From NCBI GenBank assembly GCA_016932615.1, contig JAFGCN010000027.1, positions 15,277 to 79,276 on the forward strand: DNA of 64,000 nt. Direction: 5' to 3'. Position 1 is the stretch's first letter. Every line of letters starts with the position of its first letter. The notes beneath the pieces were generated by a model. It was not told the origin of the DNA. It did not search any database and saw only the letters and a list, made by a program, of their open reading frames with translations. Source of the stretch: Candidatus Aenigmatarchaeota archaeon. Lineage in GTDB: Archaea > Aenigmatarchaeota > Aenigmatarchaeia > QMZS01. Position numbers and translations under genes: made by a program. This document shows positions 35,411 to 57,645 of the stretch, piece after piece.

Positions 35411-37663
35411 ATGGCTCATTTGAAGGGCATGGACACCTGGATTTGGCTTGTCGGAGGAATTATCGTTACAATCCTTTCCATGTTTCTGTTCTTAAACCTT
35501 TTTGCGAGCATCAATCTTCAAAGCCACACACAGGCCTCAGTTGAGACCTCTGGAAACCTTGCTTCTGACATAAACCGGCTTTGCTCGATGAAGGAGGGCG
35601 AGGCGATGAACCGGGAAATGAAGTTCTCGACCATTGTAACAGAGTTTTATGCTTCACATAATGGCTCTATTGAAATTGATTCCGGGAGGACATACGGGCA
35701 GCTTTTGTGCGTAAATATATCCGGGAAAAGCTCCTGCAGCGAGCTTGACTGCCCCCTTGAGATTTCGACGATAATAACAGAGAAGAAAATCCTCTCCCTC
35801 ATCGACAAAATGCGAGGCGACATAAGCTACAGGGACTATTCCGTGGAAGCAGTAAGGACTTCCTGTGGGGTGTCAGTACTTTTGAAAGGTGAGCGGTCTG
35901 GCTGCATCTGCGGGCTCGGGGAGTTTGATACCCCGGTTTACTGCGACTATAACGGTCACCAGCCCATAGTTATTTCCAAGGATCACTCGGTTGTCCTTGC
36001 CGATACCGAGCCATGGCTTTCTCCAGATGAAGACTCACTTCAGCTCTTCTCTAACATTGCCGGATACCTTGGCGGAAATTCAATTCTCATCCTTTATGAT
36101 GATGATTCAGTTGACCCTGCCCTGACCCAGGCGTCTCAGGTAATAGATCAGGTAATCTCTGAAGGGTATAGCGTAGACTCTGTGCTCCATGAAGCCGCTG
36201 TTGACTTTTCAGCGTATGACCAGGTCTGGCTAGTCACACCTGGATTTTGCGAGCTTTCTTCGAGGAACTGCAGCCAGCATTACCGGTGGAGCGTTAATGA
36301 GGAAAAGCGGCTTATCGAATATGCGGATTCCGGAGGCAAAATTTTGCTTGTCACCGATTCTGGTCTTGTAAATGGGGTTTATGGCCAGATGGGGCTTGAC
36401 TTAATAAACTCCCTCCTGATTGAGCTGGGCTATCCTCTTGAGCAGTTGCCGAGTTGTGTCTGCGGCTGTGAAGGAAGGCCGACTAACCAGACCGTTCTTG
36501 AAGCGGGCGGCATTGGCGATGGGCTTAGCGTTCTTAACGTGCTTGGCGCGGCTGTCTTCAGGGAGACTTGCATATATGACCCGAAGGAAAGCGGAGGCGA
36601 TTCCGGCGTTGGTGGGTGCGGCTCTGACAGGCTATGTTACCCGAACTGCCCTTCGGGAGACCCCGACTGTTCCTGCATAGAGCAAAATGGCTTTGTCTGC
36701 GACGAGGAAAAGGACTGCCCTGGAACAAAGCTAAAGCATGCCGGCGGGCGTACCTGCTGCTCTGAGCAATGTTCCGCTTCAGGCCCGCAGGTCTGCCAGA
36801 ATACAAGCGATGTTCCGGAAGGGGGCCTGTGCGTTTGCACAGGGCAGTGCCAGCCCGGCCTGTCTTGCGGGGATAAGAAGCGCTGCTGCCCTGCTGGAGC
36901 CGAATGGAACGGTTCTAAATGCTCAAAATCCGAAATCTGCTCGAGTTCTATTTCAAAGTGCTATGGCCAGGGCCATTGGGAGCATTATGGCTCACGGAAT
37001 TTTTTCAGTAATGTGGGCCGCGCCTGCGAATGCAAAATATATTCTGGCATGACAACGCCAGCGCCGCAGTCTCAGCGGTGCTATGGCTGCGATTATGTTG
37101 AAGTCTGCCAGTCCAGCGTGGTCAAGCCCATTGCAGAGGAAATCATAAATTGCTGCAATTCAAAATGCACTGATAGCGGAGGGCATGGAAGCTGCATGAA
37201 GTATTGTTCCAATGCAGTCCAGAATTCAGGGCTTTCCTCGACAGAAACTGACGACACACTGAAGAAATGCTATGGCCTTTACGCAATATATGGGATGGGC
37301 CCTGGCGCCAAATGGACAAGGGGATACATGCTCCATATAGAGGCGCCTGCTTCGGTCATGTTTAGCGGCGGAACATGGATGTGCAGCGGGTATTCCCTGA
37401 TGCTCACCACGCTTTTGAGAAGCGTGGGCTACACGACTTCAGAGGCATATTCAATTTCTTCAGATGACCATGCATACAACCTGGTGAAATTTCCTGGCGA
37501 CACGAAATATACTCTTGCAGACACGGTTAATAATCGCCCCAGTCCTGTTAGGCTGGGGTCTGTTCCGGGCGGATACCTTCACTGCAGCTATATCTCCAAC
37601 ACCTGCGGCAATGATGCCGGGATGTTCACATGCCCTTCAAGGGGCAATGTTTATGGGTGCTGA
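35411..37663 (+). CDS. Membrane-anchored cysteine-rich protein with a C-terminal transglutaminase-like (Cys-His-Asp) core.
   Basis: N-terminal TM (WIWLVGGIIVTILSMFLFLNLF), a middle region with 60+ Cys, and a C-terminal GGTWMCSGYSLMLTTLLRSVGYT...SDDHAYNLVKF that matches the transglutaminase-like cysteine peptidase signature. Confidence 0.6.
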   Translation: MAHLKGMDTWIWLVGGIIVTILSMFLFLNLFASINLQSHTQASVETSGNLASDINRLCSMKEGEAMNREMKFSTIVTEFYASHNGSIEIDSGRTYGQLLCVNISGKSSCSELDCPLEISTIITEKKILSLIDKMRGDISYRDYSVEAVRTSCGVSVLLKGERSGCICGLGEFDTPVYCDYNGHQPIVISKDHSVVLADTEPWLSPDEDSLQLFSNIAGYLGGNSILILYDDDSVDPALTQASQVIDQVISEGYSVDSVLHEAAVDFSAYDQVWLVTPGFCELSSRNCSQHYRWSVNEEKRLIEYADSGGKILLVTDSGLVNGVYGQMGLDLINSLLIELGYPLEQLPSCVCGCEGRPTNQTVLEAGGIGDGLSVLNVLGAAVFRETCIYDPKESGGDSGVGGCGSDRLCYPNCPSGDPDCSCIEQNGFVCDEEKDCPGTKLKHAGGRTCCSEQCSASGPQVCQNTSDVPEGGLCVCTGQCQPGLSCGDKKRCCPAGAEWNGSKCSKSEICSSSISKCYGQGHWEHYGSRNFFSNVGRACECKIYSGMTTPAPQSQRCYGCDYVEVCQSSVVKPIAEEIINCCNSKCTDSGGHGSCMKYCSNAVQNSGLSSTETDDTLKKCYGLYAIYGMGPGAKWTRGYMLHIEAPASVMFSGGTWMCSGYSLMLTTLLRSVGYTTSEAYSISSDDHAYNLVKFPGDTKYTLADTVNNRPSPVRLGSVPGGYLHCSYISNTCGNDAGMFTCPSRGNVYGC

Positions 37664-37691
37664 GGATATTAGTTAAAGATAAGCTAATATT

Positions 37692-38558
37692 ATGCATTGC
37701 AAAGATGCTTTCAAGGTAAGGGTCTTTTGCGCCCTGGTTTTTTGCCTTATCCTGGCCCCCATTTCTTTTGCTGAAAGTGTTCATGTCTACCGAGACTTTC
37801 CTGGCGAAGCCCGGATTGGCTCTGTGATTCAGATAAACCTGACCGTGGAAAATTTAGGGGCTTCTGTTATAGAAGCAACCATTCAGGAAAACGTGGGTGA
37901 CTATACTGTTATTGAGCCCACGCCAGTGTCTTATGTAGGCACTCCTGGAATTATTGGGTTTAGGCTGCCTTATTTTGAATGGAATGTTACGGTTGGCCCT
38001 ATGCAGAATGAAACAGTCTATTACCGTGTAAACCTTACCTCTCCCGGGGAGGTGCTGCTTTCTCCTGCAACTGTCATTGTCGGGGACGAATATATTTATT
38101 CGGATTCGGGAAGTATCAGCGTTATTTGCAATCAGAATGGGGACTGCGAGTCCCTTTTGAATGAGAACTGTTTCAACTGTCCTGAAGACTGCCCTACAGG
38201 CGCCAGTGACGGAATATGTGACCTTGTAGCGGACGGCAGATGCGACCCTGATTGCGAAGAGGGATCCGACGAGGATTGCCCGTATTGTGGGGATGGTATT
38301 TGCAGCCCGAAAGAAGATGAGTCAACTTGCCCTGGGGACTGCCGGGTAGATAGGCCACAGGATCCGGAGGAATCAGGAGATACAGAGTCGCCTGGTTCGG
38401 AAGGAATGGATTATGGCCTTATCCTGGGCATTGTTTTTGCCTTAGCCATTCTCATTTTAATTGCAGTTTACCTTAAGAGGCGAGCCTCCAAAACTTCTGA
38501 GATTCCTCCTGAAGCGCCTGCACAAAGCCAACCTATTTACCCGGAATATCCTCAATAG
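37692..38558 (+). CDS. Type I membrane protein with a Cys-rich module, a C-terminal TM and a short cytoplasmic tail.
   Basis: Signal peptide, a soluble domain, a Cys cluster (CNQNGDCESLLNENCFNCPEDCPTG...CPYCGDGICSPKEDESTCPGDC), then a TM (LILGIVFALAILILIAVYL) and a proline-rich tail. Confidence 0.55.
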   Translation: MHCKDAFKVRVFCALVFCLILAPISFAESVHVYRDFPGEARIGSVIQINLTVENLGASVIEATIQENVGDYTVIEPTPVSYVGTPGIIGFRLPYFEWNVTVGPMQNETVYYRVNLTSPGEVLLSPATVIVGDEYIYSDSGSISVICNQNGDCESLLNENCFNCPEDCPTGASDGICDLVADGRCDPDCEEGSDEDCPYCGDGICSPKEDESTCPGDCRVDRPQDPEESGDTESPGSEGMDYGLILGIVFALAILILIAVYLKRRASKTSEIPPEAPAQSQPIYPEYPQ

Positions 38559-38623
38559 GCCTCTGGTCTTCGCTTTGAAGACTCAAGCCGCTTTTTCAAA
38601 CCTCCCTCTTGTTAACTTGCAGA

Positions 38624-39307
38624 TTAATTTGTGCTTTCAACAACTGTTCCGTTTTCAAGCACGATTGCTGGCTCAACCCCCTCTTGGCTTTTCAGGGATA
38701 CGAATACTTCAATGCCGACTTCGTTTTGGTAGGTTACTGTTGTGTTCGTTATCGTGAAGTTTGAGAGGGCCATGCCTTTTGCGGAGTAGTGGGCATCTAG
38801 GACTTCGCCAATCCGCATTTCCGAAAGGGTGAATGCCTTCTCTACGCAGGAGTCAGCAGCGCTGTCGTAAACCTGGCCTTGCCAGCACCCGCAGTCCTTG
38901 TTGCAGTTGTTTGGGTCTTCAAAATATTCGCATTCTCCGTTTCCGCAGATTGGAGATACGCAGGATTTTTTCTCAAGCGAGCAGTACTCTCCCTGCCGGC
39001 AGGTGCAGTCTTCCCTGTCGTCAAGGCAGTTTTCTCCGGATTCACAGACCCCGTTATTTTTGACGCTCTGCAGTTTTTCCGTTTTTTCACTATTCTCCTG
39101 GGGGATGTCTTTATTGTCATCAAGATTTTCACCACTTCCTCCAAATAGGTAGCTGCTTAGAAATGCAATCGAAACAATTACGATGATGATTCCAATCACG
39201 GCCAGAAGGTATTTCTTCCGGCTTGTGGAATAGTTTTTCTGGTTTTCCTCCGGGGGTGGGCTTTGGGGCGGCGGATCCTGAGGGACAATTGGATATATTT
39301 CATCCAT
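38624..39307 (-). CDS. Type II membrane protein with a proline-rich cytoplasmic N-terminus and an extracellular Cys-rich module.
   Basis: PQDPPPQSPPPEE, a TM (LLAVIGIIIVIVSIAFL), then CESGENC...CGNGECEYFEDPNNCNKDCGC, which shares the CG[DN]GxC...NC.xDC pattern with the protein at 37692-38558. Confidence 0.55.
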   Translation of the reverse strand: MDEIYPIVPQDPPPQSPPPEENQKNYSTSRKKYLLAVIGIIIVIVSIAFLSSYLFGGSGENLDDNKDIPQENSEKTEKLQSVKNNGVCESGENCLDDREDCTCRQGEYCSLEKKSCVSPICGNGECEYFEDPNNCNKDCGCWQGQVYDSAADSCVEKAFTLSEMRIGEVLDAHYSAKGMALSNFTITNTTVTYQNEVGIEVFVSLKSQEGVEPAIVLENGTVVESTN

Positions 39308-39337
39308 AACTTACTATTGGAAGTATTAAACTAGATT

Positions 39338-39877
39338 ATGGTGGAGCAAAAGCCCTTTGAAAATTATCCCTGCCGGACTTTGGCGCTTTCCAATTTGCTG
39401 ACACTTTCGATTTACTTTCTGGGCGGATACATTCTCTACCAGTTTGGTGCCCTGTGGCTTGGGCTTTACCTCCTTTATGCCCTTGCCCTTGAATTCCGGG
39501 TGATGAAAAACAGTTGCGTGAGCTGCCACTACTATGGCAAAACCTGCGCCTTTGGGAAGGGAAAACTCGCCGCATTGTTTTTCAAAAAGGGAAGCCCCGG
39601 CAAATTCGCCAAAAGGGAAATTTCCCCGAAGGACCTAATTCCTGAGCTTCTCGCGTCACTCGTTCCGTTAATTGCAGGCCTCGGGCTTTTAATATTCAGT
39701 TTCAGCTGGGCGGTGCTGGCTTCTGTTGTCCTGCTGGCAGTTCTTACTTCTGCTGGGAACGGCTTTGTCCGGGGAAAACTTGCCTGCAGGTTCTGCAGGC
39801 AGAGAGAACTTGGCTGCCCTGCCGAGAGGATGTTTAGGAAGGGCAGAAAGTTGGGTCGAGCGTTAGCGAGCCGCTAA
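39338..39877 (+). CDS. Membrane protein with CxxC pairs.
   Basis: Four hydrophobic helices with CVSCHYYGKTC and CRFCRQRELGC motifs. Confidence 0.45.
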   Translation: MVEQKPFENYPCRTLALSNLLTLSIYFLGGYILYQFGALWLGLYLLYALALEFRVMKNSCVSCHYYGKTCAFGKGKLAALFFKKGSPGKFAKREISPKDLIPELLASLVPLIAGLGLLIFSFSWAVLASVVLLAVLTSAGNGFVRGKLACRFCRQRELGCPAERMFRKGRKLGRALASR

Positions 39878-40041
39878 ATTCCTGTTAGTTTCGTTTCCAG
39901 TTACGAAGTTCTGGAAACCTGCGTCCGCAGAGTCGGGAGAAAGGGCGTTCTATCAAATGAGCGAATGCTATACATCAAGAACAAGAATCTAGAGGCGTTT
40001 GCAATTATATTTATATAGAAGTAAGCATTATTAAATTTATA

Positions 40042-41283
40042 ATGGAAAAAGATGAAATATTGAAAGAGATAACAGATAAATATCTTGGTTCAGAAGAATT
40101 CAATGGTTATGCTCTTTATAATTTGGAAAATGAAATACAAAAGATAATTGAATTAGTTAAGGATGAAAAAATTGAAATAAATTTTGGTGATGGGCATCCG
40201 AATTTTCATATTAAAGCATTTGATTGTGATAATGTAGATACTCAATTAAAAAAAATTGATTCAATGGGACTTAATAATTCATGTGCATATCCAACAAAAA
40301 AATATCTCAAAACAAAAATACCTTATGGAAAATATAAAGATAAACCATTTACGAGATTGATTGCATTAGGTGAAGCAACACTAAACTTTGCGGTGTTTGA
40401 TTTAAGTGTTCTAGAAATATATAGAAATGATCCTAGGTTTTCATATTCTACTGATGATGTTGGTGGGCAAATTAACATCTCTGATGATTACTATAAATCT
40501 ACAGAAGTAAAATCCTCCGATAAAATTTTACTTCAGACGTTTGGTTTTTGTTATGAAAAAGAAAAGTTTAATAGAGCAGTTGCAGTATTTTATAGATATC
40601 TGGCTAATTTATCTGATGAACATCAAAAAATATGGCATGCTAAACTTTTGAGTGGAGATTATTTTTTACACCCGGATTATGCCCGAAGTTCTATGGGACA
40701 TTGGCCTGAAAAAGTTTCAATTTTTGAAGCATTTATTGAAGAACTAAAAACGATTAATGAGTTTTCTAAATTAATGAATAGACCAACTTTATTTAAGGAA
40801 GATTTCAAAAATAATAAACCTAGAGATTTTGCATTTTTAATCCGACCAACACTTAAAGAATTTAATTCATTTATTCATTTGTTAGATAAAATGATTTCTG
40901 ACAATATCAATAAAGATTTTTTTAAGGATGATATTGAGTTAGAATCTGAAGAAATTAGAACAGATGGTAAGATTATTGTTAGACAAAAAGCAACGATTAC
41001 TCTACTGAAAGACTGGTTAGATAAAGTAGTCAAATTTCCTGATCCAAAACCTAAGGAAGAAATGATAAAAACAATAAGAAATATTAGAACTATGCGTCAA
41101 CATCCTGCTCATAAAGTTGATGAAGATGTTTTTGACCAAAAATATTTCAAAGAACAAAGAGAGTTAGTTATTGAAGCATATAATGCAATAAGAACTTTGA
41201 GATTAATTCTTGCAAATAATCCTAGAACCAGATCTTATGAAGTGCCAGATTGGTTATATAAAGGAGAAATTTGGTCATTTTGA
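40042..41283 (+). CDS. Hypothetical 413-aa protein on a strongly AT-rich segment, carrying a C-terminal HEPN-like Rx4H motif. Possible Abi-like defence protein.
   Basis: Codon usage and base composition differ sharply from the flanks (roughly 30% G+C by eye). IRNIRTMRQHPAHK contains Rx4H twice. No other family recognised. Confidence 0.55.
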   Translation: MEKDEILKEITDKYLGSEEFNGYALYNLENEIQKIIELVKDEKIEINFGDGHPNFHIKAFDCDNVDTQLKKIDSMGLNNSCAYPTKKYLKTKIPYGKYKDKPFTRLIALGEATLNFAVFDLSVLEIYRNDPRFSYSTDDVGGQINISDDYYKSTEVKSSDKILLQTFGFCYEKEKFNRAVAVFYRYLANLSDEHQKIWHAKLLSGDYFLHPDYARSSMGHWPEKVSIFEAFIEELKTINEFSKLMNRPTLFKEDFKNNKPRDFAFLIRPTLKEFNSFIHLLDKMISDNINKDFFKDDIELESEEIRTDGKIIVRQKATITLLKDWLDKVVKFPDPKPKEEMIKTIRNIRTMRQHPAHKVDEDVFDQKYFKEQRELVIEAYNAIRTLRLILANNPRTRSYEVPDWLYKGEIWSF

Positions 41284-41401
41284 TGTAAACGCCCCCTTCT
41301 ATTTTTTAGCCCTTTCTCCCGATTGAAACTAACAACTGTTTAACGAACTTTATTCTCCTTTGCCTCGTCTTTTATGAGTATTAACGAAATAAGCGGTTAA
41401 C

Positions 41402-43522
41402 TTAATACACAAACAGCATCTCCCTGAACTTGGGCACAGGCCAAAGCTTGTCCTCGACTTCTCCTTCAAGCCCGTCGATTGCTTCCCGAAGGTTTGCCAT
41501 TACGTTCAGCACTTCGCTGGTCTTTCCTGCTTCGATAATTCTTTCAAGGTTTTCCGATTCATGCATGGCCTTTGATATGAGGTTTGAAACCCTGTTCAGT
41601 CTCTTTTCCATTCCGGATATGCTTTTGGCGTTTTTGTTTGCTTCTTTTAGGAGCAAGACCTCTCTGCAAAGATTTCTCTGGTGGCGAAGGGCGGCAGGCA
41701 GAATCATTGTTTTTGCAAGGTCGAGCATGCACTTTCCCTCGAGGTCGATTGTTTTTTCATACATCTCCCAGAGTATGTGGTACCTTGACTCAAGCTCCCT
41801 TTTTGAGTAGACCCCGTACTTTTCAAAAAGCTTTTGGGCTTTTTCGGACCTGAGGTATTCAAGGGCTTCGGGAGTTGCCCTGATGTTTAAAAGCCCCCTT
41901 CTTTTTGCCTCTTCCTGCCACTCGGGGCTGTAGTTGTCGCCGTTGAAGATTATCCTCTTGTGCTTTCGTATTGTTTCAAGCAGCACTTTCTGAAGCGCCT
42001 GATTGAAGATTTCCCCTTTTTTGGTAAGGGCTTCGGCTTGGCTGCATATTTCGTCCAGCGCTTCTGCGATAATTGTATTGAGGACCGTGTTTGCTCCCGC
42101 GCATGACTGGCTTGAGCCAACTGCCCGAAACTCGAATTTGTTTCCGGTAAAAGCAAATGGAGAAGTCCTGTTTCTGTCTGTCGTGTCTTTTGGTATCGGT
42201 GGAATTGAGCTTACACCGATTTTCAGCATTTCCTTTGGCTTTCCGGTGCCATTTCTGCCGCTTTCAATCCGAGAAATTATCTCCGTAAGCTCGTCGCCAA
42301 GCGAGATGGAGATTATTGCTGGAGGCGCTTCATTTGCGCCGAGCCGGTGGTCGTTTCCGCTTGAAGCAACTGACGCGCGAAGAAGGTCTGCGTGCTTGTC
42401 AACAGCCATAATGACCGCGCAAATGGCTGTGAGGAATTTTGCGTTTTCCTGCGGGTTGTGCCCCGGGTCAAGCAGGTTTTTTCCGTCAGGGCCAAACAAG
42501 CTCCAGTTGTTGTGTTTTCCGGAGCCGTTTACTCCCTTGAATGGCTTTTCGTGAAGCAGGCATACAAGGCCGTGCTTTTCTGCGGTTTCTTTCAGTATCT
42601 GCATGATCAGCATGTTGTGGTCCACCGCAAGGTTTTGCTCCTCATAGAGGGGCACTATCTCGAACTGGGCGGGGGCGACTTCATTGTGCCTCATCTTTGC
42701 GGGTATGCCAAGCTTCCAGCACTCCTTGTCAACTTCCTCCATGAAGCAAATGACTCTTTTCCTTATGCTTCCGAAATAATGGTCTTCCATCTGCTGGTGC
42801 TTTGAGCCGATTCTTCCAAAAAGAGACCTCCCCGTCAGTATGATGTCCGGCCTTTCCAGGTAAAAGTCCCTGTCGATTAGAAAATACTCCTGCTCTATTC
42901 CCACCATCGGGACGGCTTTCTTGTCTGGAAGTTCTTCGCCGAATAGCTTCAGAAGCCGCCTCGTGGACTTGGAAAGCGCTTCGGCAGACCTTAGAAGAGG
43001 GGTTTTCTTGTCAAGCGCATCCCCGTTGTAAGAGTAGAACGCGGAAGGAATGCAAAGTGTCGGGCTCTCGCCGATGTACTTTATGAATGCCGGGCTTGTC
43101 GGGTCCCAGGTTGTGTGGCCTCTTGCCTCGAATGTTGCGCGAAGTCCGCCTGAGGGAAAGCTTGAAGCATCCGGCTCCCCGGAAACGAGGTTTTTGGCCG
43201 AAAATTTCATTATTGCCCTTCCGTCCGAAAGGGGCTCCAAAAATGCCTCGTGTTTTTCTGCAGTGAGTCCCGTCATCGGCTGGAACCAGTGGGTGAAATG
43301 CGTTGCGCCTTTTGAAATCGCCCAGTTTTTCATGCCTTCAGCGACGTCACCCAGCAGCTCTTCAGGGAAAGGGTCTCCCCGGTCCAGGGTGTTTTTGAGC
43401 GCGGTAAAAGCGGGGGTTGGCAGATATGCGCTCATTGCATTAAGCCCAAAGGAATTCTCGCCGTAGGTTTCCGTGATTTCTGTTTTTCCGGCGTTATCTG
43501 CGGCCATACCTAATCTTTCCAT
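41402..43522 (-). CDS. glnN: Glutamine synthetase type III.
   Basis: 706 aa. The GS catalytic core is present with the GSIII-specific long N- and C-terminal extensions (NGSGKHNNWSL, MAVDKHADLLRASVASSGNDHRLGANEAPPAIISI). Confidence 0.75.
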   Translation of the reverse strand: MERLGMAADNAGKTEITETYGENSFGLNAMSAYLPTPAFTALKNTLDRGDPFPEELLGDVAEGMKNWAISKGATHFTHWFQPMTGLTAEKHEAFLEPLSDGRAIMKFSAKNLVSGEPDASSFPSGGLRATFEARGHTTWDPTSPAFIKYIGESPTLCIPSAFYSYNGDALDKKTPLLRSAEALSKSTRRLLKLFGEELPDKKAVPMVGIEQEYFLIDRDFYLERPDIILTGRSLFGRIGSKHQQMEDHYFGSIRKRVICFMEEVDKECWKLGIPAKMRHNEVAPAQFEIVPLYEEQNLAVDHNMLIMQILKETAEKHGLVCLLHEKPFKGVNGSGKHNNWSLFGPDGKNLLDPGHNPQENAKFLTAICAVIMAVDKHADLLRASVASSGNDHRLGANEAPPAIISISLGDELTEIISRIESGRNGTGKPKEMLKIGVSSIPPIPKDTTDRNRTSPFAFTGNKFEFRAVGSSQSCAGANTVLNTIIAEALDEICSQAEALTKKGEIFNQALQKVLLETIRKHKRIIFNGDNYSPEWQEEAKRRGLLNIRATPEALEYLRSEKAQKLFEKYGVYSKRELESRYHILWEMYEKTIDLEGKCMLDLAKTMILPAALRHQRNLCREVLLLKEANKNAKSISGMEKRLNRVSNLISKAMHESENLERIIEAGKTSEVLNVMANLREAIDGLEGEVEDKLWPVPKFREMLFVY

Positions 43523-50629: not shown

Positions 50630-51052
50630 ATGAAGGGCGCTTATGTTATTGTCCTCGAAGTTGAAAAAGACTGCTCGCTTGCCGTGGGGGCTTTAGGCGA
50701 ACTGCATTTCAGGAAAGGGATTTACCTGTATGTCGGCTCTGCGATGAACAATTTGGAAAAGCGGACTAGGCGGCACCTGAGAAAAGAGAAAACTCTGCGC
50801 TGGCACATAGATTACCTGACAGTTTCGCCTTTCGTAAATGTAAGAGCGGTTTACTTTCGGGAGTCCTCCCGAAAGGAGGAGTGCGAAATAGCAGGTCTTG
50901 TGGCAAAACACGGCACTCCTGTTATGGGGTTTGGCTGTTCTGACTGCCGGTGCCATAGCCACCTTTTTCAGGTAAGCGATGAGGAATTTTTGAAAGGTAC
51001 GATGAAACGATTCTTTGGCGCTCAAGACAGTAGGTTAACTCTGCCCTTTTAA
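50630..51052 (+). CDS. GIY-YIG-like nuclease-fold protein (archaeal DUF123-like).
   Basis: GIYLYVGSA and a downstream R..RH motif, with a C-terminal Cys cluster (CSDCRCHSH). Confidence 0.55.
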   Translation: MKGAYVIVLEVEKDCSLAVGALGELHFRKGIYLYVGSAMNNLEKRTRRHLRKEKTLRWHIDYLTVSPFVNVRAVYFRESSRKEECEIAGLVAKHGTPVMGFGCSDCRCHSHLFQVSDEEFLKGTMKRFFGAQDSRLTLPF

Positions 51053-51131
51053 ATATGCTTTCTACTTTTTCATAATTCTTGCGGCTACATTCTTGCATTT
51101 TGATTAAATATCTGGAGGGGTAAACGGCTCT

Positions 51132-51476
51132 ATGGGAGAAGCTATTGTTGAGAGGAGAGCGCTGTCCGAGTGCCCCGTTGGGAGATTGTCTTGTGGAGAC
51201 GTTGTCAATGCTTTGGAAGCCGGACGCTCCAGTCGGGAGATTCTGGACTTGGCCGGATGCTGCAAAGATTGTCCTGCTTACAGGGCTTCATCTGATGGGG
51301 CATGGTTGGGGTCTGGAGATAGCCGATACGTAAGAATGGGGGGCGATTGCGGATTTTGTGTGCCGGGCTGGAATGAGGCGCTGGGATTGGGTCCTGTGTG
51401 CCGCATCAAGGAGTGCGTGGATACTCTGGGAATGATATACCGAGGTGACGGAGCCAGTATAGCCCGCACGCCTTAA
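51132..51476 (+). CDS. Hypothetical Cys-containing protein. Coding status uncertain.
   Basis: 114-aa ORF in a G+C-richer segment with several Cys pairs. Confidence 0.25.
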   Translation: MGEAIVERRALSECPVGRLSCGDVVNALEAGRSSREILDLAGCCKDCPAYRASSDGAWLGSGDSRYVRMGGDCGFCVPGWNEALGLGPVCRIKECVDTLGMIYRGDGASIARTP

Positions 51477-51557
51477 GGATGGCTCTTGGGCTTTTGTTTT
51501 GTCTTGTTTTGATATTTTCTGACAGAGCCGATGCTTTATTTTAATCCAAATTATATT

Positions 51558-51857
51558 GCGGGAGTGTCCGAGTCTGGCCAACGCTTTTTCTGCCTTTAAA
51601 TCCCATGAAGGAATGGGGCGGAATGATGGTTAAAGGAGCAGGACTTAAGAAATTAAGTTTGGAGCCGAAAAACGGCGATGACTGCCGAAAAAGCTCTTTT
51701 AAGAAATCCTGTGCGTTAGTCGCTGCGAGGGTGAATCTTTTTCTTTTGAAAAAGAAAAAGCTCCAGGACCAAAAAGAAAACAAATATTTCGCTTCGCGGA
51801 ATAATGCCTGAAGGTCGGGGAAGAAGATTTCCTTGAATTCGAATCCCTTCTCCCGCA
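51558..51857 (+). tRNA. tRNA-like gene of class II (Leu/Ser) type, with about 210 nt of intervening sequence. Putative multi-intron tRNA. The anticodon is not resolved.
   Basis: The 5' GCGGGAG and 3' CTCCCGC are perfect complements. The 3' end carries a canonical T-loop and stem (TTCGAAT-CCCTT) immediately before the acceptor strand, with discriminator A. The 5' end carries TG plus a Leu/Ser-like D-arm (TCCGAGTCTGGCCAA). A T-rich tract follows the 3' end. Confidence 0.4.
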
Positions 51858-51876
51858 CATTTTTAAGGTCTGGCTT

Positions 51877-53259
51877 CTAGTTAAGCTTCTCTATGCAGCT
51901 TCCAAGCTGGAAAACTTTTCCTTCCTGCAAATGGTCGCCGATTATGTGAAGCCCTATTGGCATTCCTTCGCTTCTGCCGACAGGAACGGACAGGTGAGGC
52001 ACTCCGCAAAGGTTTGGCCCCACAGTCAGGATGTCCATTGCGTAGTGCTGGGCAGGCGTAAGCTCTGCGATGTCTGTGAACTTGGGAGCGACAATCGGCA
52101 TTGTGGGCGTAACGATGCAGTCGAACTTCTGGAAAGCAGACTTGAATTCCTTTATCAAATGTGCTCGGACCTTCAGGGCTTTAAGGTAATACTTGTCCCT
52201 GTAGCCGGATTTCCTGTAGAATGTCCCAAGAATGCACCTCCTTTTTGCCTCGAGCCCAAAGTACTTCCCGCGGACTTTCGAGAAAAACTCGTTGTACCCT
52301 CCTTCAATCTCAAGGGTTGAGCCGTACCTTATGCCGCAGAACTTGGCAAGGTTTGTAGATGCCTCGCTCATCGCGATTATGTAGTATGACGGAAGCGCAT
52401 ACTTTGTGGAAGCAAGGGAGAACTCTTCGTACTTTATCCCGGCAGACTCTAGCTTTTTTATCTGCCTCCAGATTTCCTGCTTAATCTCTTCATTGACACC
52501 CTCGAAATATTCTTTGGGAACGCCCACCCTCATTTTCGAGGGATCTTTTTCAAGAAAGCTCGTATAATCCTCATCTTTTCGGTTTATTGAGGTGGAATCC
52601 CTTTCGTCAAATCCGGCAATTTTCGATAGGCCCCATGCGGCCTCAAAGCAGTTTTTGCCGATTATGCCGACCTTGTCGAGGGAAGAGGCGTAGTCTATCA
52701 TTCCATATCTTGAAACCCTTCCGTATGTGGGTGTTATTCCGACCACTCCGCAAAAAGAGGCGGGGCAGGATATGGAGCCGCCGGTTGATTCTGCCATTGC
52801 AACGTGTGGCAGGTTCTGGAGTGCTGCAGTCAGGCATGCGGCGCCGCCCGAAGAGCCGCCGCAGCTTCTTCTGGGGTCAAGCGGGTTTTTGGGAACGCCG
52901 AAAGCGCAGTTCATGGAAAAAGTGCCAAAGCCAAACTCGTCCATTGCGGTCTTTCCTATGATGTAACCGAAGTTCTTTATTTTTTCAACCACGTGGGCGT
53001 CAAATGGGGGGACATAAGTTTCAAGTATCCTGCTCCCTGCGGTCGTCCTTATCCCGCTTGTGCAGAGGCAGTCCTTTACGGAAATTGGGACTCCTGGAAA
53101 GCTTTCCTTTGCGCCCATTTTCTCGCAGTGGCTTAGCGCTTCGTCTCTTGAAACTGTAATAAAGGGCCCGAATTTGCCCTGAATTCTGTCAACTTCCTTC
53201 CATATCTTTTCAAATACTTCCCCCTGGTTGGGGTTTTCGAGATATTCCTTAAGGTCCAT
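51877..53259 (-). CDS. gatA: Glutamyl/aspartyl-tRNA amidotransferase subunit A (amidase signature family).
   Basis: GGSSGG signature (CGGSSGGAACLTAA), the Ser-cisSer-Lys triad context and a typical length of 460 aa. Confidence 0.85.
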   Translation of the reverse strand: MDLKEYLENPNQGEVFEKIWKEVDRIQGKFGPFITVSRDEALSHCEKMGAKESFPGVPISVKDCLCTSGIRTTAGSRILETYVPPFDAHVVEKIKNFGYIIGKTAMDEFGFGTFSMNCAFGVPKNPLDPRRSCGGSSGGAACLTAALQNLPHVAMAESTGGSISCPASFCGVVGITPTYGRVSRYGMIDYASSLDKVGIIGKNCFEAAWGLSKIAGFDERDSTSINRKDEDYTSFLEKDPSKMRVGVPKEYFEGVNEEIKQEIWRQIKKLESAGIKYEEFSLASTKYALPSYYIIAMSEASTNLAKFCGIRYGSTLEIEGGYNEFFSKVRGKYFGLEAKRRCILGTFYRKSGYRDKYYLKALKVRAHLIKEFKSAFQKFDCIVTPTMPIVAPKFTDIAELTPAQHYAMDILTVGPNLCGVPHLSVPVGRSEGMPIGLHIIGDHLQEGKVFQLGSCIEKLN

Positions 53260-53385
53260 AAAATACCTAGATTTTATAAGGTTTTGAAAGTGCCGCGTTT
53301 TTCCTCTTTTTTTGCTTAAATACGCTCTTTGGGCTGCAGCCGGACCCCTGCTGAGCCATATTTAACATTTAGCCCTTCTTTCTAA

Positions 53386-53643
53386 ATGGGAAAAGCAATT
53401 CTTTGTTACGAAATAATGCCGGAAAGCATTGAGTCAGTTGACCTGGTGGAGGAAGGGCTCAAAAAGCTTAATCCCGGAAAAATCGAAAAAAAGCCGATTG
53501 CCTTCGGGCTCAGCGCATTTGAGGTGACCTTTATCATCGAGGATGCGGAAGGGGCTGCAGGCAACACCGACGAAATCGAGACAAACCTTGAGAAAGTAGA
53601 GGGAGTCGGCTCGGTGAAGAGCATGGGCGTAACCCTTGCTTAG
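53386..53643 (+). CDS. Elongation factor 1-beta (aEF-1beta).
   Basis: 85 aa. MGKAILCYEIMPESIESVDL...PIAFGLSAFEVTFIIEDAEGAAGNTDEIE...VEGVGSV matches the archaeal EF-1beta fold consensus. Confidence 0.7.
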   Translation: MGKAILCYEIMPESIESVDLVEEGLKKLNPGKIEKKPIAFGLSAFEVTFIIEDAEGAAGNTDEIETNLEKVEGVGSVKSMGVTLA

Positions 53644-53668
53644 ACACAGTTTGCTGTTTGTTTTTGGC

Positions 53669-53884
53669 TTATATGATGCCCATTGATACTGACAGGGCAA
53701 GCTCGTGCTTTCTGAAGTAAAAATTCGCTTTTAGGGCTGCTTTTGGGTCCGGGCTTTTGCAATAAATTTCTCCAAGCGCAGAGTAGACGGGAACCAGACG
53801 ACGGGCCAGCTGGGGGTAGAAGTTCCAGTGTATGTCTGGATGAAGCTTTTCTGCCCTTTTGTTCGCGTCTTCGTAATTTTTCAT
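53669..53884 (-). CDS. Hypothetical protein. The same frame continues upstream through one TAA to an ATG at 54037.
   Basis: 71-aa ORF. The upstream 24 codons (MAELGYLGPAYSHDFWVERDPELV) are in frame, separated by a single TAA. Confidence 0.3.
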   Translation of the reverse strand: MKNYEDANKRAEKLHPDIHWNFYPQLARRLVPVYSALGEIYCKSPDPKAALKANFYFRKHELALSVSMGII

Positions 53885-54265
53885 TGCTCTCTCAAGGGCA
53901 CTAATTCTTTTGGACCCGTTCAGCCGTTTTGAAGCTTCATAGTCTTTGGCTCCGCTTACAATCAGTTATACCAGTTCCGGGTCTCTTTCAACCCAGAAGT
54001 CGTGGCTGTAAGCCGGGCCCAGATAACCCAATTCTGCCATGCATACCCTTAGGTTTTTTGGAATTTAAGTTTCTCAAGTATTGCTATTAAAACAAGTACA
54101 TTTAGATGACGAAAACAAAAAATTGAGCCGATTTCGGCGATGATTGGTGATGGGCGAACGGATACTCTATTTTCTTTTTCTGGAACTTTGTACGTTTTTT
54201 GTAATGCTTTTGCCAGACAATCGTATTTTTTTCCAGCTTAAAAAAAAGCATTGCTTTCTCTAGTT

Positions 54266-54727
54266 ATGCCTTTCAGGAAAACTCTTCCCGGTTCTAACCT
54301 CTATCGTGGGGAGTTGCTCTTTTTCAAAGTACTGGAAGGATGCAACGGGGGAAGTTCAGGCAGATCGGATTATTCTGCTGTCTTGGATTTTCCGCCAAGT
54401 TACTTGATCTTTGCAGATGAGAATATACCGCAGATGCTGATAGCTGCAGTTGGCGAAAATGCTACGGCGCACAGGATTTCCAGTGTTGTCAGAGAAGAGC
54501 CTATTTTTGGGCTAAAGCGTCGTATGCTCGATATGGATATTGAAGATATCGCCTTTCTTTATGGAGGGGCTTATATACTTAGTTCTGACCGTGATTTTAG
54601 GAATTATCCTCGCAGAATTTACATCAAGCAAAGTTCCGTAGGATATAAAACGCCTCAACTGGAGAAAGACCTTCAGGTGGTTATGGAGCGCCTTTCCCAG
54701 GATTTTCCAGAATACTCTCCTAGATAG
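54266..54727 (+). CDS. Hypothetical protein.
   Basis: The ORF from the ATG is about 153 aa (the track starts at a TTG at 54251). No family recognised. Confidence 0.35.
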   Translation: MPFRKTLPGSNLYRGELLFFKVLEGCNGGSSGRSDYSAVLDFPPSYLIFADENIPQMLIAAVGENATAHRISSVVREEPIFGLKRRMLDMDIEDIAFLYGGAYILSSDRDFRNYPRRIYIKQSSVGYKTPQLEKDLQVVMERLSQDFPEYSPR

Positions 54728-54763
54728 ATTATTGTTTTTTTTAAATAATTACTTTTTACTTTC

Positions 54764-55435
54764 ATGGGCACTGGACTTAGTAGCGTTAATTCTGGTCTTC
54801 CAGATAGGTTTCCAATCGGTCTTTGTTTGGACGAGAAAGGCCGGTATAGAGACACTTCTGTTTACTTGGAGATGCCAGAAACCCTTCTTCTTGGAAATGT
54901 TGAACAAATACGCTCAAGGAAGACTCGTGGTGGCAAAACTGGAACACAAATGTATCGGGATGCAGGTTCCTTGGAATTTAGCGCCTCCTCAGAACCGTAT
55001 AAAGAAGCTCATGATCTGCTATATTGTTATGCTGATCAACTGTCCCGTGAGATATTGACTCCGCCTAATGATCCACAGGAACACTTTCTTAAGGGGTATA
55101 TTCTTACAAATCTGGGCAAAAATCCTTCAGGCTCCAAAAGAAGGTCAGTTTTGGAGGTTCTTGAGAGAACTCCAAGAAGTACCAACCTGGAATTTTCCCT
55201 TGCGGTCTGCAATGCGTTTGAGGTATCTCCAGGAGTTTTTGTTGAGCTAGACACCCCTTATCCCAATTCAGTCAGGTATTTTGCTGAATTTCACATAGAA
55301 GCATCTCCTGGCGAGATAAGAGTTATCCCTGCAAGGATAAGGGATGCTGGTAGAGGAAGCGGAGAAAGCGAACTTGAATTTAATAAGGTAGTTTTAGCAC
55401 GATTTCTTTATGATTTTTCCAGGGCTCACCGGTAG
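54764..55435 (+). CDS. Hypothetical protein.
   Basis: 223-aa ORF, no family recognised. It forms a pair with the preceding ORF. Confidence 0.35.
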   Translation: MGTGLSSVNSGLPDRFPIGLCLDEKGRYRDTSVYLEMPETLLLGNVEQIRSRKTRGGKTGTQMYRDAGSLEFSASSEPYKEAHDLLYCYADQLSREILTPPNDPQEHFLKGYILTNLGKNPSGSKRRSVLEVLERTPRSTNLEFSLAVCNAFEVSPGVFVELDTPYPNSVRYFAEFHIEASPGEIRVIPARIRDAGRGSGESELEFNKVVLARFLYDFSRAHR

Positions 55436-55472
55436 ATCTGGCATTAATTGATTTAAATTCAAATAGAATTAC

Positions 55473-55623
55473 GCGGAGGTGGCAGAACAGCTATGCATCC
55501 GGCTGCAGTCCTACCCTTTCTTTGCAAAAGAAAGGCTGAGGTTCACCCAAAGAAAGCAGATTCCTGCTTCGCAGAAACAAAAGCGGTTACCGGACCAAGA
55601 GGGTGCGACTCCCTCCCTCCGCT
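55473..55623 (+). ncRNA. tRNA-like structured RNA locus. Acceptor-stem complements GCGGAGG/CCTCCGC and a T-arm-like hairpin enclose an approximately 75-nt insertion.
   Basis: 5' GCGGAGG-TG-GCAG...CTGC (D-stem-like) and 3' GAGGG-TGCGACT-CCCTC-CCTCCGC-T. The T-loop is non-canonical (G at position 55) and the D-loop is over-long, so this may be a degenerate or intron-containing tRNA. Confidence 0.3.
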
Positions 55624-55702
55624 GTCAGACCTTTTCTTTAGGAAAGAAAAGGGCCGACACCCCCAAAAGAACCCTATTCCTGCTTCGCAGGAATAACAGC
55701 GG
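55514..55702 (+). repeat. Two tandem copies (about 116-nt period) of a structured element. A third, diverged copy lies at about 51737-51806, inside the tRNA-like locus.
   Basis: Each unit has a T-rich/A-rich hairpin (CCTTTCTTT...AAAGAAAGG), CCCAAAGAA, and a second hairpin ATTCCTGC-TTC-GCAGGAAT. The copy at 51786-51802 reads ATTTCGC-TTC-GCGGAAT, with compensatory changes that keep the stem. Confidence 0.55.
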
Positions 55703-55733
55703 TCTGATAAGCGCAAGAGAAGCTATTGGCAGC

Positions 55734-56153
55734 TTAAGACACCTTTTTCCAAATAAGCCGTCCTTTTTGTTCGTGATCTATACCCTTGTTAACCCAAATG
55801 ACGCTTATATTTCCATTGGGCAGTATGTGCAAAGTATGTTCTCCCCAAGCGTTCAAATTTGAAGTAGGTCTCCAGTCATAAAATCCGGTAAGAACAGAAT
55901 TTCCAAGATATCTCAGGTGGCTTTCCCATTCAATCCCGTTACGTTCCCGACCTATTGCCTTAAAATCATTTCCGATTAAATGTACTACTCGTACCTTTCC
56001 ATTGTCGTGCACATAAGTACCAATAATATTTTTGAACTTTCTTTTTAGATAGCGTTTATCATAAAATTCACGCTTGAAGAGGACTATAACTGCTTCTGCA
56101 ATAAATGTGGCGATTATTCCAAGTAAGAATGCAATCGTAAAATCATTCTCCAT
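55734..56153 (-). CDS. Hypothetical membrane-anchored protein.
   Basis: N-terminal TM (FTIAFLLGIIATFIAEAVIVLF) and a 110-aa soluble domain. Confidence 0.4.
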   Translation of the reverse strand: MENDFTIAFLLGIIATFIAEAVIVLFKREFYDKRYLKRKFKNIIGTYVHDNGKVRVVHLIGNDFKAIGRERNGIEWESHLRYLGNSVLTGFYDWRPTSNLNAWGEHTLHILPNGNISVIWVNKGIDHEQKGRLIWKKVS

Positions 56154-56208
56154 AATTCTTTTTTGCAGAGTATATTCTAGGCGTTAATGGTGTTAGTCTG
56201 GCTTTAGA

Positions 56209-57645
56209 CTAAATCATATCCTTAATCATCTCCCTTATCCTTCCCGGTGACGCATGACGCCCGGATTTCTTCATCACCTGCCCGACGAGGTAGTTGAATG
56301 CCTCTTCATGCCCGTTCTCGTAGTCCCGAACCGCCTTTGCGTTGCCCCGTATGACGTCCCGGACATACTTTTCGAGCTGCTCTTCTTCCAGGGGCTTGTC
56401 AAGCTTCAGGTCTCGCAGAACATGGTCCGGCTCCCTTACCTTCTGCTTTTTGACGGCGTCGTAAACCATCTCCCTGATGACAAGCTCGGCAACATCGTCC
56501 ATTATCTTGTAATCCTGGAGCAGGTCGAGAAGCCTCCTCAGGTGCCTTATCTCGATTCCGCTGTCCTTAAGCGAAATGTTGTGGTAGTTGAGGGTCTTTT
56601 TCACGTATTTTGCAAGTATTGTCGCGGCTGGCTTTTCGCTGTGGGTTTCGCAAAGGTACTCGAAGTAATTTGCCATTTCGGGCTCCGTAAGAATTGTGTC
56701 AATAATCTCCTCAGAAATCGTGCCCATTTTCAGGTATCTCTTTTTCTTCAGGTCAGGAAGCTCCGGGAGGTTTGACTGGACCTTGTTAAGAAGCTCGTCA
56801 TCAATTTCCATGATGGGCAGGTCCGGCTCAAATATATATCCGTAGTCTTCCTCCTCTTCCTTTGCCCTGGCGCTTGTGGTGGTCTTGGTCTTCTCATTCC
56901 AGAGCCGGGTTTCCCTCTTTACTTCCTGCACGTTTTTCTGGCGTATTATCTCAAAGCTCAGGCTCTTTTCGACGTCCTTTATGCCGGAGATATTTTTGAT
57001 TTCAACCCTTTCGCCATCTTTTTTCTGCTCGACCATCCTTCCGAGGAATGGGTCGAAAACGTTTTCAAATCGGGTGACGGAAATGTTTGCGTCCATCCTC
57101 ATGCATCCCTCTTTTCTAAAGTCAGTTACGTAAAGGTATTCAATAATCTGCTGGAGCTTTTGCAGGAAAAGCCGCGCTTCGGCGGGGCTTGACAGGTCCG
57201 GCTCGGTCACTATCTCGACCAGGGGAGTTCCGGAGCGGTTGTAATCAAGAAGGCAGCAGTCATCTTTTCTTACAATCCTTGCAGGGTCTTCCTCGAGGTG
57301 AATGCCCCGGAGCCGAATCTCTTTGTTGTTGATTTTAACTGACCCACCTCTTGCAAGCTTTACCTCCTGCTGGGTAATCTGGTAATCCTTGGACAAGTCC
57401 GGGTAAAAGTAAGTTTTCCTCGAGAACAGAAATCTCCTGTTGAGGTTGCAGCCGAGGGCAAGTGCTATCTTTATGCCCTGCTCTATCGCTTTTTCGTTTA
57501 GCCGCGGCTTGGTTCCCGGAAAGCCGAGGCACACATCGCATACATTTGTGTTTGGCTCTGCGTTTTCGTTTGCGCAGGAGCAGAATAATTTTGAGCGCGT
57601 GTCTAGCTGCACATGGACTTCAAGCCCTATTCTTATGCCTTCCAT
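56209..57645 (-). CDS. gatB: Aspartyl/glutamyl-tRNA amidotransferase subunit B.
   Basis: 478 aa. N-terminal IGLEVHVQL, the Zn/cradle domain CSCAN...CDVCLGFPG and a C-terminal YqeY-like tail. Confidence 0.85.
   Translation of the reverse strand: MEGIRIGLEVHVQLDTRSKLFCSCANENAEPNTNVCDVCLGFPGTKPRLNEKAIEQGIKIALALGCNLNRRFLFSRKTYFYPDLSKDYQITQQEVKLARGGSVKINNKEIRLRGIHLEEDPARIVRKDDCCLLDYNRSGTPLVEIVTEPDLSSPAEARLFLQKLQQIIEYLYVTDFRKEGCMRMDANISVTRFENVFDPFLGRMVEQKKDGERVEIKNISGIKDVEKSLSFEIIRQKNVQEVKRETRLWNEKTKTTTSARAKEEEEDYGYIFEPDLPIMEIDDELLNKVQSNLPELPDLKKKRYLKMGTISEEIIDTILTEPEMANYFEYLCETHSEKPAATILAKYVKKTLNYHNISLKDSGIEIRHLRRLLDLLQDYKIMDDVAELVIREMVYDAVKKQKVREPDHVLRDLKLDKPLEEEQLEKYVRDVIRGNAKAVRDYENGHEEAFNYLVGQVMKKSGRHASPGRIREMIKDMI

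Follow-up and report, generated by a model that had tools for sequence, protein, structure and literature searches.

Archaeal tRNA genes may be interrupted at non-canonical sites as well as at the canonical 37/38 position, and the published list of such sites includes 20/21 and 53/54 (PMC4090602). Intrastrand triplexes are classified by the order of their tracts. A pyrimidine tract, a purine tract and a mirror-ordered purine tract on one strand define a class II, purine-motif (reverse-Hoogsteen) intrastrand triplex, the complement of which belongs to class IV, the pyrimidine motif (PMC4666352). Here we describe tRNA genes in which the two subjects meet. In a 64,000-nucleotide stretch from a Candidatus Aenigmatarchaeota archaeon (contig JAFGCN010000027.1, positions 15,277 to 79,276; hereafter the window), a tRNA-Cys(GCA) and a tRNA-Leu(UAA) gene carry three copies of a structured unit of about 65-75 nt, comprising a pyrimidine/purine hairpin (hairpin 1), an CCAAAAGAA tract and a second hairpin (hairpin 2). 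The tract between the hairpins, CCAAAGAA, is the purine arm of hairpin 1 read backwards, and across related genomes its A and G run lengths follow those of hairpin 1 in mirror order.

The unit has a regular layout: a pyrimidine arm CC-U(a)-C-U(b), a loop, a purine arm A(b)-G-A(a)-GG, a linker of 10-15 nt and a purine tract CC-A(a)-G-A(b), followed in most copies by hairpin 2. A covariance model (R1), built from six copies (one from the window and five from relatives) and run with filters off, gives exactly three significant matches in the window, all on the plus strand (57.2, 31.2 and 23.7 bits; next match E = 0.2), and a pattern scan of the 64 kb likewise finds three copies, all on the plus strand. 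We refer to them as copies A, B and C (Table 1). A preliminary description of this DNA had reported three copies of a structured element, one of them in tandem downstream of another and a diverged one within a first tRNA-like locus, and had proposed a covariance-model search. That search and the pattern scan bear out all three: the tandem copy (B) and the diverged copy (C, about 51732-51802) are real, and the model finds more in the contigs of relatives, where, over 505 kb, none of the copies spotted by eye escaped it and new ones came to light. The unit is always oriented as its tRNA, hairpin 1 begins 5-8 nt past the upstream exon or tRNA end, and the unit sits only in parts of the precursor that are discarded, namely the 37/38 intron (most of which is taken up by copy A) and 3' trailer of tRNA-Cys and the 53/54 intron of tRNA-Leu. 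Copies A and B are spaced by 116 nt and are 70% identical without gaps; copies A and C share 74% identity.

The relatives were assembled by scanning metagenome contigs with a tRNA-Cys 5'-half pattern and by walks from homologs of GatA and GatB, which together supplied 51 plus about 15 loci (designated below by the prefix L). The evidence for a selected three-strand contact comes from these sequences. Among copies with a single G (n = 14), the tract is an exact mirror of the purine arm in 13, whereas direct order fits only three, all of them symmetric. When only the asymmetric copies are considered (a different from b, n = 11), mirror order fits 10 and direct order none. Nine distinct hairpin (a,b) states occur and eight are matched by the tract (exact permutation p = 5.5e-6, uncorrected for shared ancestry or gene conversion), a count that takes a single imperfect copy as representing its state. 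The change can be followed at one orthologous site: written as hairpin and tract run lengths, the Leu copies read (5,4|5,4) in the window, (5,5|5,5) in L088 and (4,4|4,4) in L089. In copy B of both L082 and L088, the hairpin has two internal C-G pairs and the tract two Gs at matched spacing. The tract is unpaired in all minimum-free-energy folds. We also considered it as a direct repeat of the purine arm, and hence as an alternative Watson-Crick partner of the pyrimidine arm, and rejected this candidate, which fits 0/11 asymmetric copies. A longest-common-substring comparison that includes loop bases is ambiguous between mirror and direct order. Copying errors yield direct or inverted repeats, not mirror repeats. 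The coordinated change of three tracts in mirror order thus argues for selection on a three-strand contact, and at the level of sequence the units demonstrably follow the class II triplex rule. To our knowledge, such a signature of three-strand covariation has not previously been described in tRNA introns.

Table 1. Features of the tRNA-Cys and tRNA-Leu loci (positions count from the first nucleotide of the window) and related loci carrying the unit at the same sites
Feature	Position	Strand	Details and basis
tRNA-Cys(GCA) gene	55473-55623	+	ARAGORN with introns allowed (-i); 80-nt intron
tRNA-Cys exon 1	55473-55508		
tRNA-Cys intron	55509-55588		80 nt; position 37/38
tRNA-Cys exon 2	55589-55623		
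Splice motif of Cys intron	55503-55594	+	scripted geometry check
TTTAAATT, TATA-box-like	55442-55449	+	about 27 nt upstream of tRNA-Cys; sequence only
Copy A, hairpin 1	55515-55535	+	pyrimidine arm CCTTTCTTT, loop GCA, purine arm AAAGAAAGG
Copy A, mirror purine tract CCCAAAGAAAG	55546-55556	+	unpaired in minimum-free-energy fold
Copy A, hairpin 2	55560-55578	+	ATTCCTGC-TTC-GCAGAAAC; C.A mismatch
Copy B, 3' trailer of tRNA-Cys	55624-55706	+	starts one base after discriminator
Copy B, hairpin 1	55630-55652	+	CCTTTTCTTT-AGG-AAAGAAAAGG
Copy B, mirror tract CCCCCAAAAGAA	55660-55671	+	
Copy B, hairpin 2	55676-55694	+	ATTCCTGC-TTC-GCAGGAAT
tRNA-Leu(UAA) gene	51558-51857	+	three introns; ARAGORN on spliced sequence
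tRNA-Leu exons	51558-51581, 51634-51649, 51706-51731, 51838-51857		
tRNA-Leu intron, D loop	51582-51633		position ~20/21
tRNA-Leu intron, canonical	51650-51705		position 37/38
tRNA-Leu intron, T arm	51732-51837		position 53/54; 106 nt
Copy C, T-arm intron of tRNA-Leu	51737-51802	+	model match, sequence
Copy C, hairpin 1	51737-51760	+	CTTTTTCTTTT-GA-AAAAGAAAAAG
Copy C, mirror tract CCAAAAAGAAAA	51769-51780	+	
Copy C, hairpin 2	51786-51802	+	ATTTCGC-TTC-GCGGAAT
Site A (Cys intron), carriers			L001/L079/L080, L035/L036/L054, L058, L082 (=L033/L034), L046, L088
Site B (directly 3' of tRNA-Cys), carriers			L058, L082, L080, L088; degenerate in L035
Site C (Leu T-arm intron), carriers			L088, L089; insertion-disrupted in L001

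The hairpins themselves also bear the marks of selection on pairing. Hairpin 1 is perfect in each copy and co-varies, and in copy A it is lengthened by a flanking CCU/AGG pairing (55510-55512 with 55539-55541). Over 31 distinct model hits, 93.5% of its positions pair, compared with 82.7% in shuffles, the alignment being fitted to the model; in the same model-fitted alignment both sides change in 7 of 11 pairs, and slid controls pair at 54-67%. Hairpin 2 occurs in most copies, with sequences as different as CCUGC/GCAGG, UUCGC/GCGGA, CGAGC/GCUC, GAAAAAGC/GCUUUUUC and UGGG/CCCA, and the compensatory changes that had been proposed for it hold. As read from the sequences, the third pair counted from the loop changes from U-A into C-G or A-U, and at the fifth C-G gives way to U-A. 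The Cys intron of L088 retains hairpin 1 and the tract and has no hairpin 2, which is therefore dispensable. The earlier conclusion of selection on RNA structure is thereby upheld: the units have structure, their pairing is under selection, and they are associated with tRNA genes.

Judged from the ARAGORN calls, the splice-motif geometry, the known intron sites and an intronless relative with matching exons (L032), both host loci are real intron-containing tRNA genes, and all three of their intron positions are on the published list (PMC4090602). Default ARAGORN calls no tRNA in the window, the genes emerging only once introns are permitted in the search or excised manually, and Rfam 15 gives no window match at gathering scores (the region 51000-56500 gives sub-threshold noise only). 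Once spliced, both fold as normal cloverleaves; tRNA-Cys is 71 nt long and is called tRNA-Cys(gca), with a U73 discriminator and no encoded CCA; tRNA-Leu, the introns of which were excised by hand before the call, is 86 nt long and is called tRNA-Leu(taa), with a long variable arm. They are the only two tRNA genes in the window. In the preliminary description these loci were merely tRNA-like; the tRNA nature stands, and the spliced calls make them genuine Cys and Leu genes. All the sequence features that it listed are where it put them, and the complementary ends GCGGAGG/CCTCCGC and the arm GAGGG-TGCGACT-CCCTC in the Cys locus are the acceptor strands and T arm of tRNA-Cys. Its D stem, GCAG/CTGC, was a misreading: CTGC corresponds to anticodon-loop positions 32-35 (CUGC), the last two bases being the first two of the anticodon, and the true D stem is GCA/UGC.

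The introns of both genes agree with the archaeal bulge-helix-bulge (BHB) type on every feature tested, and their excision is predicted. A scripted check of 14 introns (four from the window and ten orthologous) found the BHB geometry in all 14, with a central helix, two 3-nt bulges cleaved past their second base, and one or more flanking helices; the central helix (H) has 4/4 bp in 13 introns and 3/4 bp in one. In the Cys intron, a 5-bp outer helix (h, UCCGG/CCGGA) adjoins a central helix between CUGC (32-35) and GCGG (55583-55586), with bulges AG^U and UU^A, and this geometry is kept in L001, L035, L058, L082, L046 and L080, where GCGG, GCAG and UUAG vary opposite CUGC. The inner helix (h') measures 3 bp for the Leu 53/54 intron and only 0-2 bp for the Cys intron. 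BHB motifs, which had been proposed as a check at the element borders, are thus present at the borders of the introns that hold copies A and C. They bound the introns and not the element, copy C for example occupying only the first ~70 nt of its 106-nt intron. The element had also been called intron-like, which suits copies A and C but not copy B, a 3' trailer without a conserved BHB: the CCGCUGU/ACAGCGG pairing seen there in the window is absent from L058, L082 and L080. As candidates for a helix closing around copy B, this pairing and UCAGAC/GUCUGA are mutually exclusive and neither is conserved.

Some tRNA-Cys orthologs have an intron and some do not, the exons being conserved; L081 and others are intronless, as is L032, and intron lengths of 59, 72, 80, 82, 101, 106 and 152 nt occur. 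We infer that TTTAAATT is the archaeal promoter of tRNA-Cys, and similar TTTAAA motifs lie upstream of its orthologs. G18G19 is missing from the D loop (AACAGCU) of the window tRNA-Cys (55482-55497, 55604-55610), and the T loop of this tRNA (UGCGACU) has G at position 55; by contrast, the loops of the intronless L032 are the usual AGGGGCU (D) and UUCAAAU (T). The elbow contacts of tRNA-Cys seem, on these sequences, to have been remodelled jointly in the lineage of the window.

The tRNA-Leu ortholog in L001 has three introns as in the window gene, and the T-arm intron varies between 106 and 173 nt among close relatives. In L088 and L089, the closest relatives (GatA 81-82% identity), tRNA-Leu(UAA) has four introns (L088:3085-3440, minus strand), or a D-loop intron at another site together with a 173-nt T-arm intron (L089:2710-3055, minus strand); these differences from the window point to fast gain and loss of introns in this group. 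The canonical 37/38 intron of the window gene contains a match to the kink-turn consensus, GGAGCCG-AAAAA-CGGCGATGAC (51661-51682), in which GCCG/CGGC forms the stem, next to tandem G.A/A.G pairs and a bulge of 3 nt, as in a binding site of the L7Ae type. The match is found in 4/4 orthologous Leu introns (including those of L001, L088 and L089) and also at L001:12553-12575; L001 has a free-standing kink-turn copy 90 nt downstream of tRNA-Cys.

The nearest relatives of the window's GatA and GatB are other Aenigmatarchaeota contigs, and relatives with the unit at the same three sites (Table 1) have 72-73% (GatB) and 81-82% (GatA) identity. The arrangement at three sites accordingly predates the split of these lineages and is not a recent local duplication. 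The identity matrix clusters copies by site (window A and L058 A, 91%; window C and L088 C, 88%; window B and L058 B, 80%), as expected of vertical descent. There are two exceptions: copies A and B of L058 are 88% identical, and the L035 Cys intron and L089 Leu intron, which come from one assembly, are 84% identical and have the linker CUCCAGGACC in common, a likeness that exceeds most orthologous pairs. Both cases indicate copying between sites. The suggestion that the elements are mobile is therefore weakly supported, with clustering by site counting against it and the two cases of copying in its favour. Copy B is missing from L001/L079 and present in the near-identical L080; the break falls exactly at the tRNA 3' end, in an inverted segment. 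The tRNA-Cys of L080 is 98% identical to that of L001:11314-12636/L079, with the same flanks, opposite orientation and different cargo. A B-like trailer hairpin follows the intronless tRNA-Cys of L081. No tRNA lies near the gene in the GatA-linked L090/L091 or the GatB-linked L030/L031, so that synteny is conserved only in part.

Related modules appear in L068, L057 and L046. A different tRNA in a more distant lineage (L068:10270-10490) has a T-loop intron of about 190 nt built of three tandem modules, each a hairpin (CCUUUU/AAAAGG) plus CCAAAA, which extends this type of module beyond the clade studied. Downstream of tRNA-Cys in L057 (2440-2600, minus strand), two 63-nt direct repeats flank a pyrimidine/purine hairpin with a mirror tract (5,2|5,2). 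The 152-nt Cys intron of L046 has a second long pyrimidine/purine hairpin, CCUUUUUCUCUUU/AAAGAGAAAAAGG (1690-1745), the upstream pyrimidine tract of which is compatible with class IV triplex order as well as with a direct repeat.

The explanation that best covers these observations as a whole is a purine-clamped fold of the sense RNA that would act in cis within discarded segments of pre-tRNA, although we hold it tentatively and somewhat short of even confidence. Each unit would form a self-contained intramolecular triplex of the purine motif (class II, pyrimidine-purine-purine, with A.A-U and G.G-C triples) in the sense transcript, its hairpin clamped by its own downstream purine strand. Sense RNA is the most likely carrier of the fold, given that all copies share the orientation of their tRNA and lie in transcribed segments, and that the helices contain sense-strand G.U pairs (window C, L089 C, L088 B hairpin 2; the extension of L088 A). 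A bolder claim, which we regard as doubtful, is that 7-10 consecutive A.A-U and G.G-C triples here make up an extended RNA triple helix of the purine motif, and hence a new natural class; we know of no such extended natural triplex. Several points weigh against the sense-RNA account. Window copy B is off by one A (4,3|4,2), the permutation p ignores kinship and gene conversion, and intronless relatives show that the tRNA has no need of the unit. The C run preceding the tract varies in step with the G run in the purine arm, and C is not the expected third-strand base in the antiparallel purine motif; the antisense strand would offer ordinary U.A-U, C+.G-C and G.G-C triples at the same positions. 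Minimum free energies of the sense and antisense strands do not discriminate between them. The triple helices known from natural RNAs are U.A-U helices, although A.A-U and G.G-C triples do occur singly, in tRNA-like contexts and in the spliceosomal and group II catalytic cores (PMC7583470). Failure of all-RNA purine-motif triplexes to form in vitro has been reported (PMC4666352), although the evidence is mixed (PMC7583470), and an RNA version with 7-10 triples would be unprecedented. The main competitor, which we consider unlikely, places the fold in single-stranded DNA, as an intrastrand triplex or H-DNA-like element (class II in the sense or class IV in the template strand) resembling the bacterial PIT (potential intrastrand triplex)/BoxC elements, which would promote recombination and slippage, spread as selfish DNA and persist where the transcript is discarded. 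The chemistry of intrastrand DNA triplexes of the purine and pyrimidine motifs is well established, and such triplexes have been tied to genomic instability (PMC4666352); triples on the antisense strand explain the correlation of C and G runs better. A fold in DNA would also suit the fluid length and content of introns among close relatives (Cys 59-152 nt, Leu T arm 106-173 nt), the tandem multiplication of a tract or module in L088 B and L068, and the rearrangement breakpoint exactly at the tRNA-Cys/B junction (L080 versus L001). It sits poorly with an orientation that is fixed relative to tRNA transcription in all copies, with sense-strand G.U pairs in the flanking helices, which point to selection on RNA, and with inheritance at orthologous sites, outside tRNA loci no copies having been found in the window or in some 500 kb of related contigs; nor was a transposase or integrase found near the window copies.

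What the sense-RNA fold would do is the weakest step of the account. It may act in cis as a rigid, closed fold that prevents pairing between a U-rich/A-rich insert and the body of the tRNA and presents the splice sites, in the Cys intron replacing the inner helix that its relaxed BHB lacks (h' 0-2 bp); besides vertical descent, it could have spread among disposable pre-tRNA segments by copying or gene conversion at the DNA level. We think it quite unlikely that the unit is instead the gene of a trans-acting small RNA, for example a protein-binding or stabilised one, freed by splicing (possibly as a circle) or by cleavage of the tRNA 3' end, on the analogy of the box C/D RNA in the archaeal tRNA-Trp intron. 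Such a role would account for conservation and covariation well beyond the needs of splicing and for two different processing routes that deliver the unit; the neighbouring Leu intron 2 bears a motif of protein-binding type (the kink-turn consensus), and functional RNAs in tRNA introns have precedent (PMC4090602). Yet the unit matches no Rfam family, C (RUGAUGA), D (CUGA) and ACA boxes are absent from all three window units, hairpin 2 (lacking in L088 A) and total length are poorly conserved, and the disruption of the Leu copy by an insertion in L001 and the lack of copy B in L001/L079 imply that no single copy is indispensable. Still less probable is a terminator or attenuator. On that view tRNA-Cys would have its archaeal oligo-T terminator in the T-rich arm CCTTTTCTTT, 6-8 nt beyond the tRNA end, convergent transcripts of the GatB operon and GatA would likewise stop at the palindrome and the complementary T-rich tract, and the intron copies would be derived duplicates. 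T4-T6 does directly follow most related tRNA-Cys genes, the window tRNA genes are convergent with GatA and GatB, the antisense strand of the unit has T4-T5 runs, and the intronless tRNA-Cys of L081 has its B-like hairpin at the 3' side. This proposal leaves the mirror covariation of the third tract unexplained, and T-rich signals within an intron would do harm where the tRNA gene is essential and present in one copy; as a general rule, bidirectional termination is contradicted by L058 and L082, where the gene after B is co-directional and not convergent. It is very improbable that the copies are alike by chance, or that low-complexity sequence without selected structure was recently duplicated in tandem on the spot. 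The adjacency of A and B, their 116-nt spacing and 70% ungapped identity, and the low complexity of the sequence would suit such an origin, but the comparative data already contradict it: no fewer than four other lineages share the A+B arrangement, A and B are each closer to copies in other genomes than to each other, hairpin pairing exceeds that of shuffles and slid controls, and the three-way covariation is strong. Neither was the unit accepted as a repeat derived from a miniature inverted-repeat transposable element or insertion sequence, the copies lying at tRNA loci only and the window containing no transposase. Scans of viral contigs with a T-arm pattern and an element pattern returned only unrelated phage tRNA genes and one chance phage match.

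The genes of the window are archaeal housekeeping genes, including those for aminoacyl-tRNA synthetases, SecY, ribosomal proteins, the proteasome and glutamine synthetase. No transposase, integrase or splicing-endonuclease (EndA) gene was found in the 64 kb, and no RtcB gene. GatA and GatB (51877-53259 and 56209-57645) lie 3 kb apart on the minus strand, and each is followed by a convergent, module-bearing tRNA gene; the antisense T4-T5 runs of the modules fall just past both the GatA and GatB stop codons. Between an EF-1beta-like open reading frame (ORF) and ORF 54251-54727, three overlapping sub-threshold matches to archaeal box C/D small RNAs occur at 54102-54165 (sR18, sR2 and sR1; 12.6-15.2 bits, E 6.5-9.7). 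The region 40001-42000 has a G+C content of 0.34, against about 0.47 elsewhere in the window, and may be foreign DNA; Pfam gives no match for ORF 40042-41283 or its neighbours at 35411-39877. Amid the housekeeping genes, the ORF at 25337-26998 is a defence gene, with the N-terminal domain of a GmrSD restriction endonuclease.

These findings bear on several questions. Multi-intron tRNA genes in Aenigmatarchaeota escape standard tRNA finders, and the misses of default ARAGORN and Rfam here indicate that the tRNA complements of DPANN Archaea are probably under-called. A structured module common to a 3' trailer and to introns of two tRNA genes is relevant to the origin and movement of archaeal introns. 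Comparative evidence for triple-stranded structures is rare, and mirror-order covariation of three tracts supplies it: a fold of RNA would represent a new natural class of RNA triple helix, a fold of DNA an archaeal counterpart of the bacterial intrastrand-triplex repeats that is tied to tRNA genes.

The splicing context of the unit resembles the archaeal BHB introns described by Marck and Grosjean (2003) and Sugahara (2007/2008) and reviewed in PMC4090602, in that the introns holding copies A and C have a 4-bp central helix and two 3-nt bulges. Positions 37/38, ~20/21 and 53/54 are all known, the forms here being the relaxed hBH or HBh', and multiplicity is comparable, with up to three introns per gene here and four in L088. 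The differences lie in the host, a mesophilic-looking DPANN archaeon (Aenigmatarchaeota) and not a member of Thermoproteales, and in a conserved internal module that splicing does not need and that is also found outside an intron. An intron sequence common to different tRNA genes recalls the 'tRNA intron transposition' of Thermoproteales, in which nearly identical introns recur among tRNA genes (Fujishima et al., 2010; summarized in PMC4090602), and is seen here between different isoacceptor genes and different positions (74% for window A and C; 84% for the L035 Cys and L089 Leu introns). Compared with that summary, the present family occupies two or three sites per genome seen so far and is mostly vertical, one of its copies is a 3' trailer, and the shared part is a structured core and not the whole intron. 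The trailer copy suggests that the intron may derive from the trailer, or the reverse. The box C/D RNA in the archaeal tRNA-Trp intron offers a parallel: in both cases a tRNA intron contains a conserved, structured RNA, which for the unit too would be freed by splicing. The unit has no C/D boxes, guide logic or Rfam match, and the kink-turn consensus occurs only in a different Leu intron.

With the bacterial PIT/BoxC elements and the scheme of classes I-IV (Hoyne/Maher, 2000; Holder et al., 2015, PMC4666352), the unit shares the order of pyrimidine, purine and mirror purine. It differs in being archaeal, in having A/U-rich rather than G/C-rich tracts, in its confinement to discarded, transcribed parts of tRNA genes, and in drawing its support from run-length covariation rather than copy number. 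The natural RNA triplexes of telomerase RNA, the MALAT1/PAN ENE (element for nuclear expression), SAM-II and preQ1-II (PMC7583470) offer the other comparison: here too a single-stranded tract co-varies with a helix, the major groove of which it would occupy, and the fold may have a stabilizing or protective role. The known examples are parallel, pyrimidine-motif U.A-U helices (PMC7583470), whereas the fold proposed here would be antiparallel and of the purine motif.

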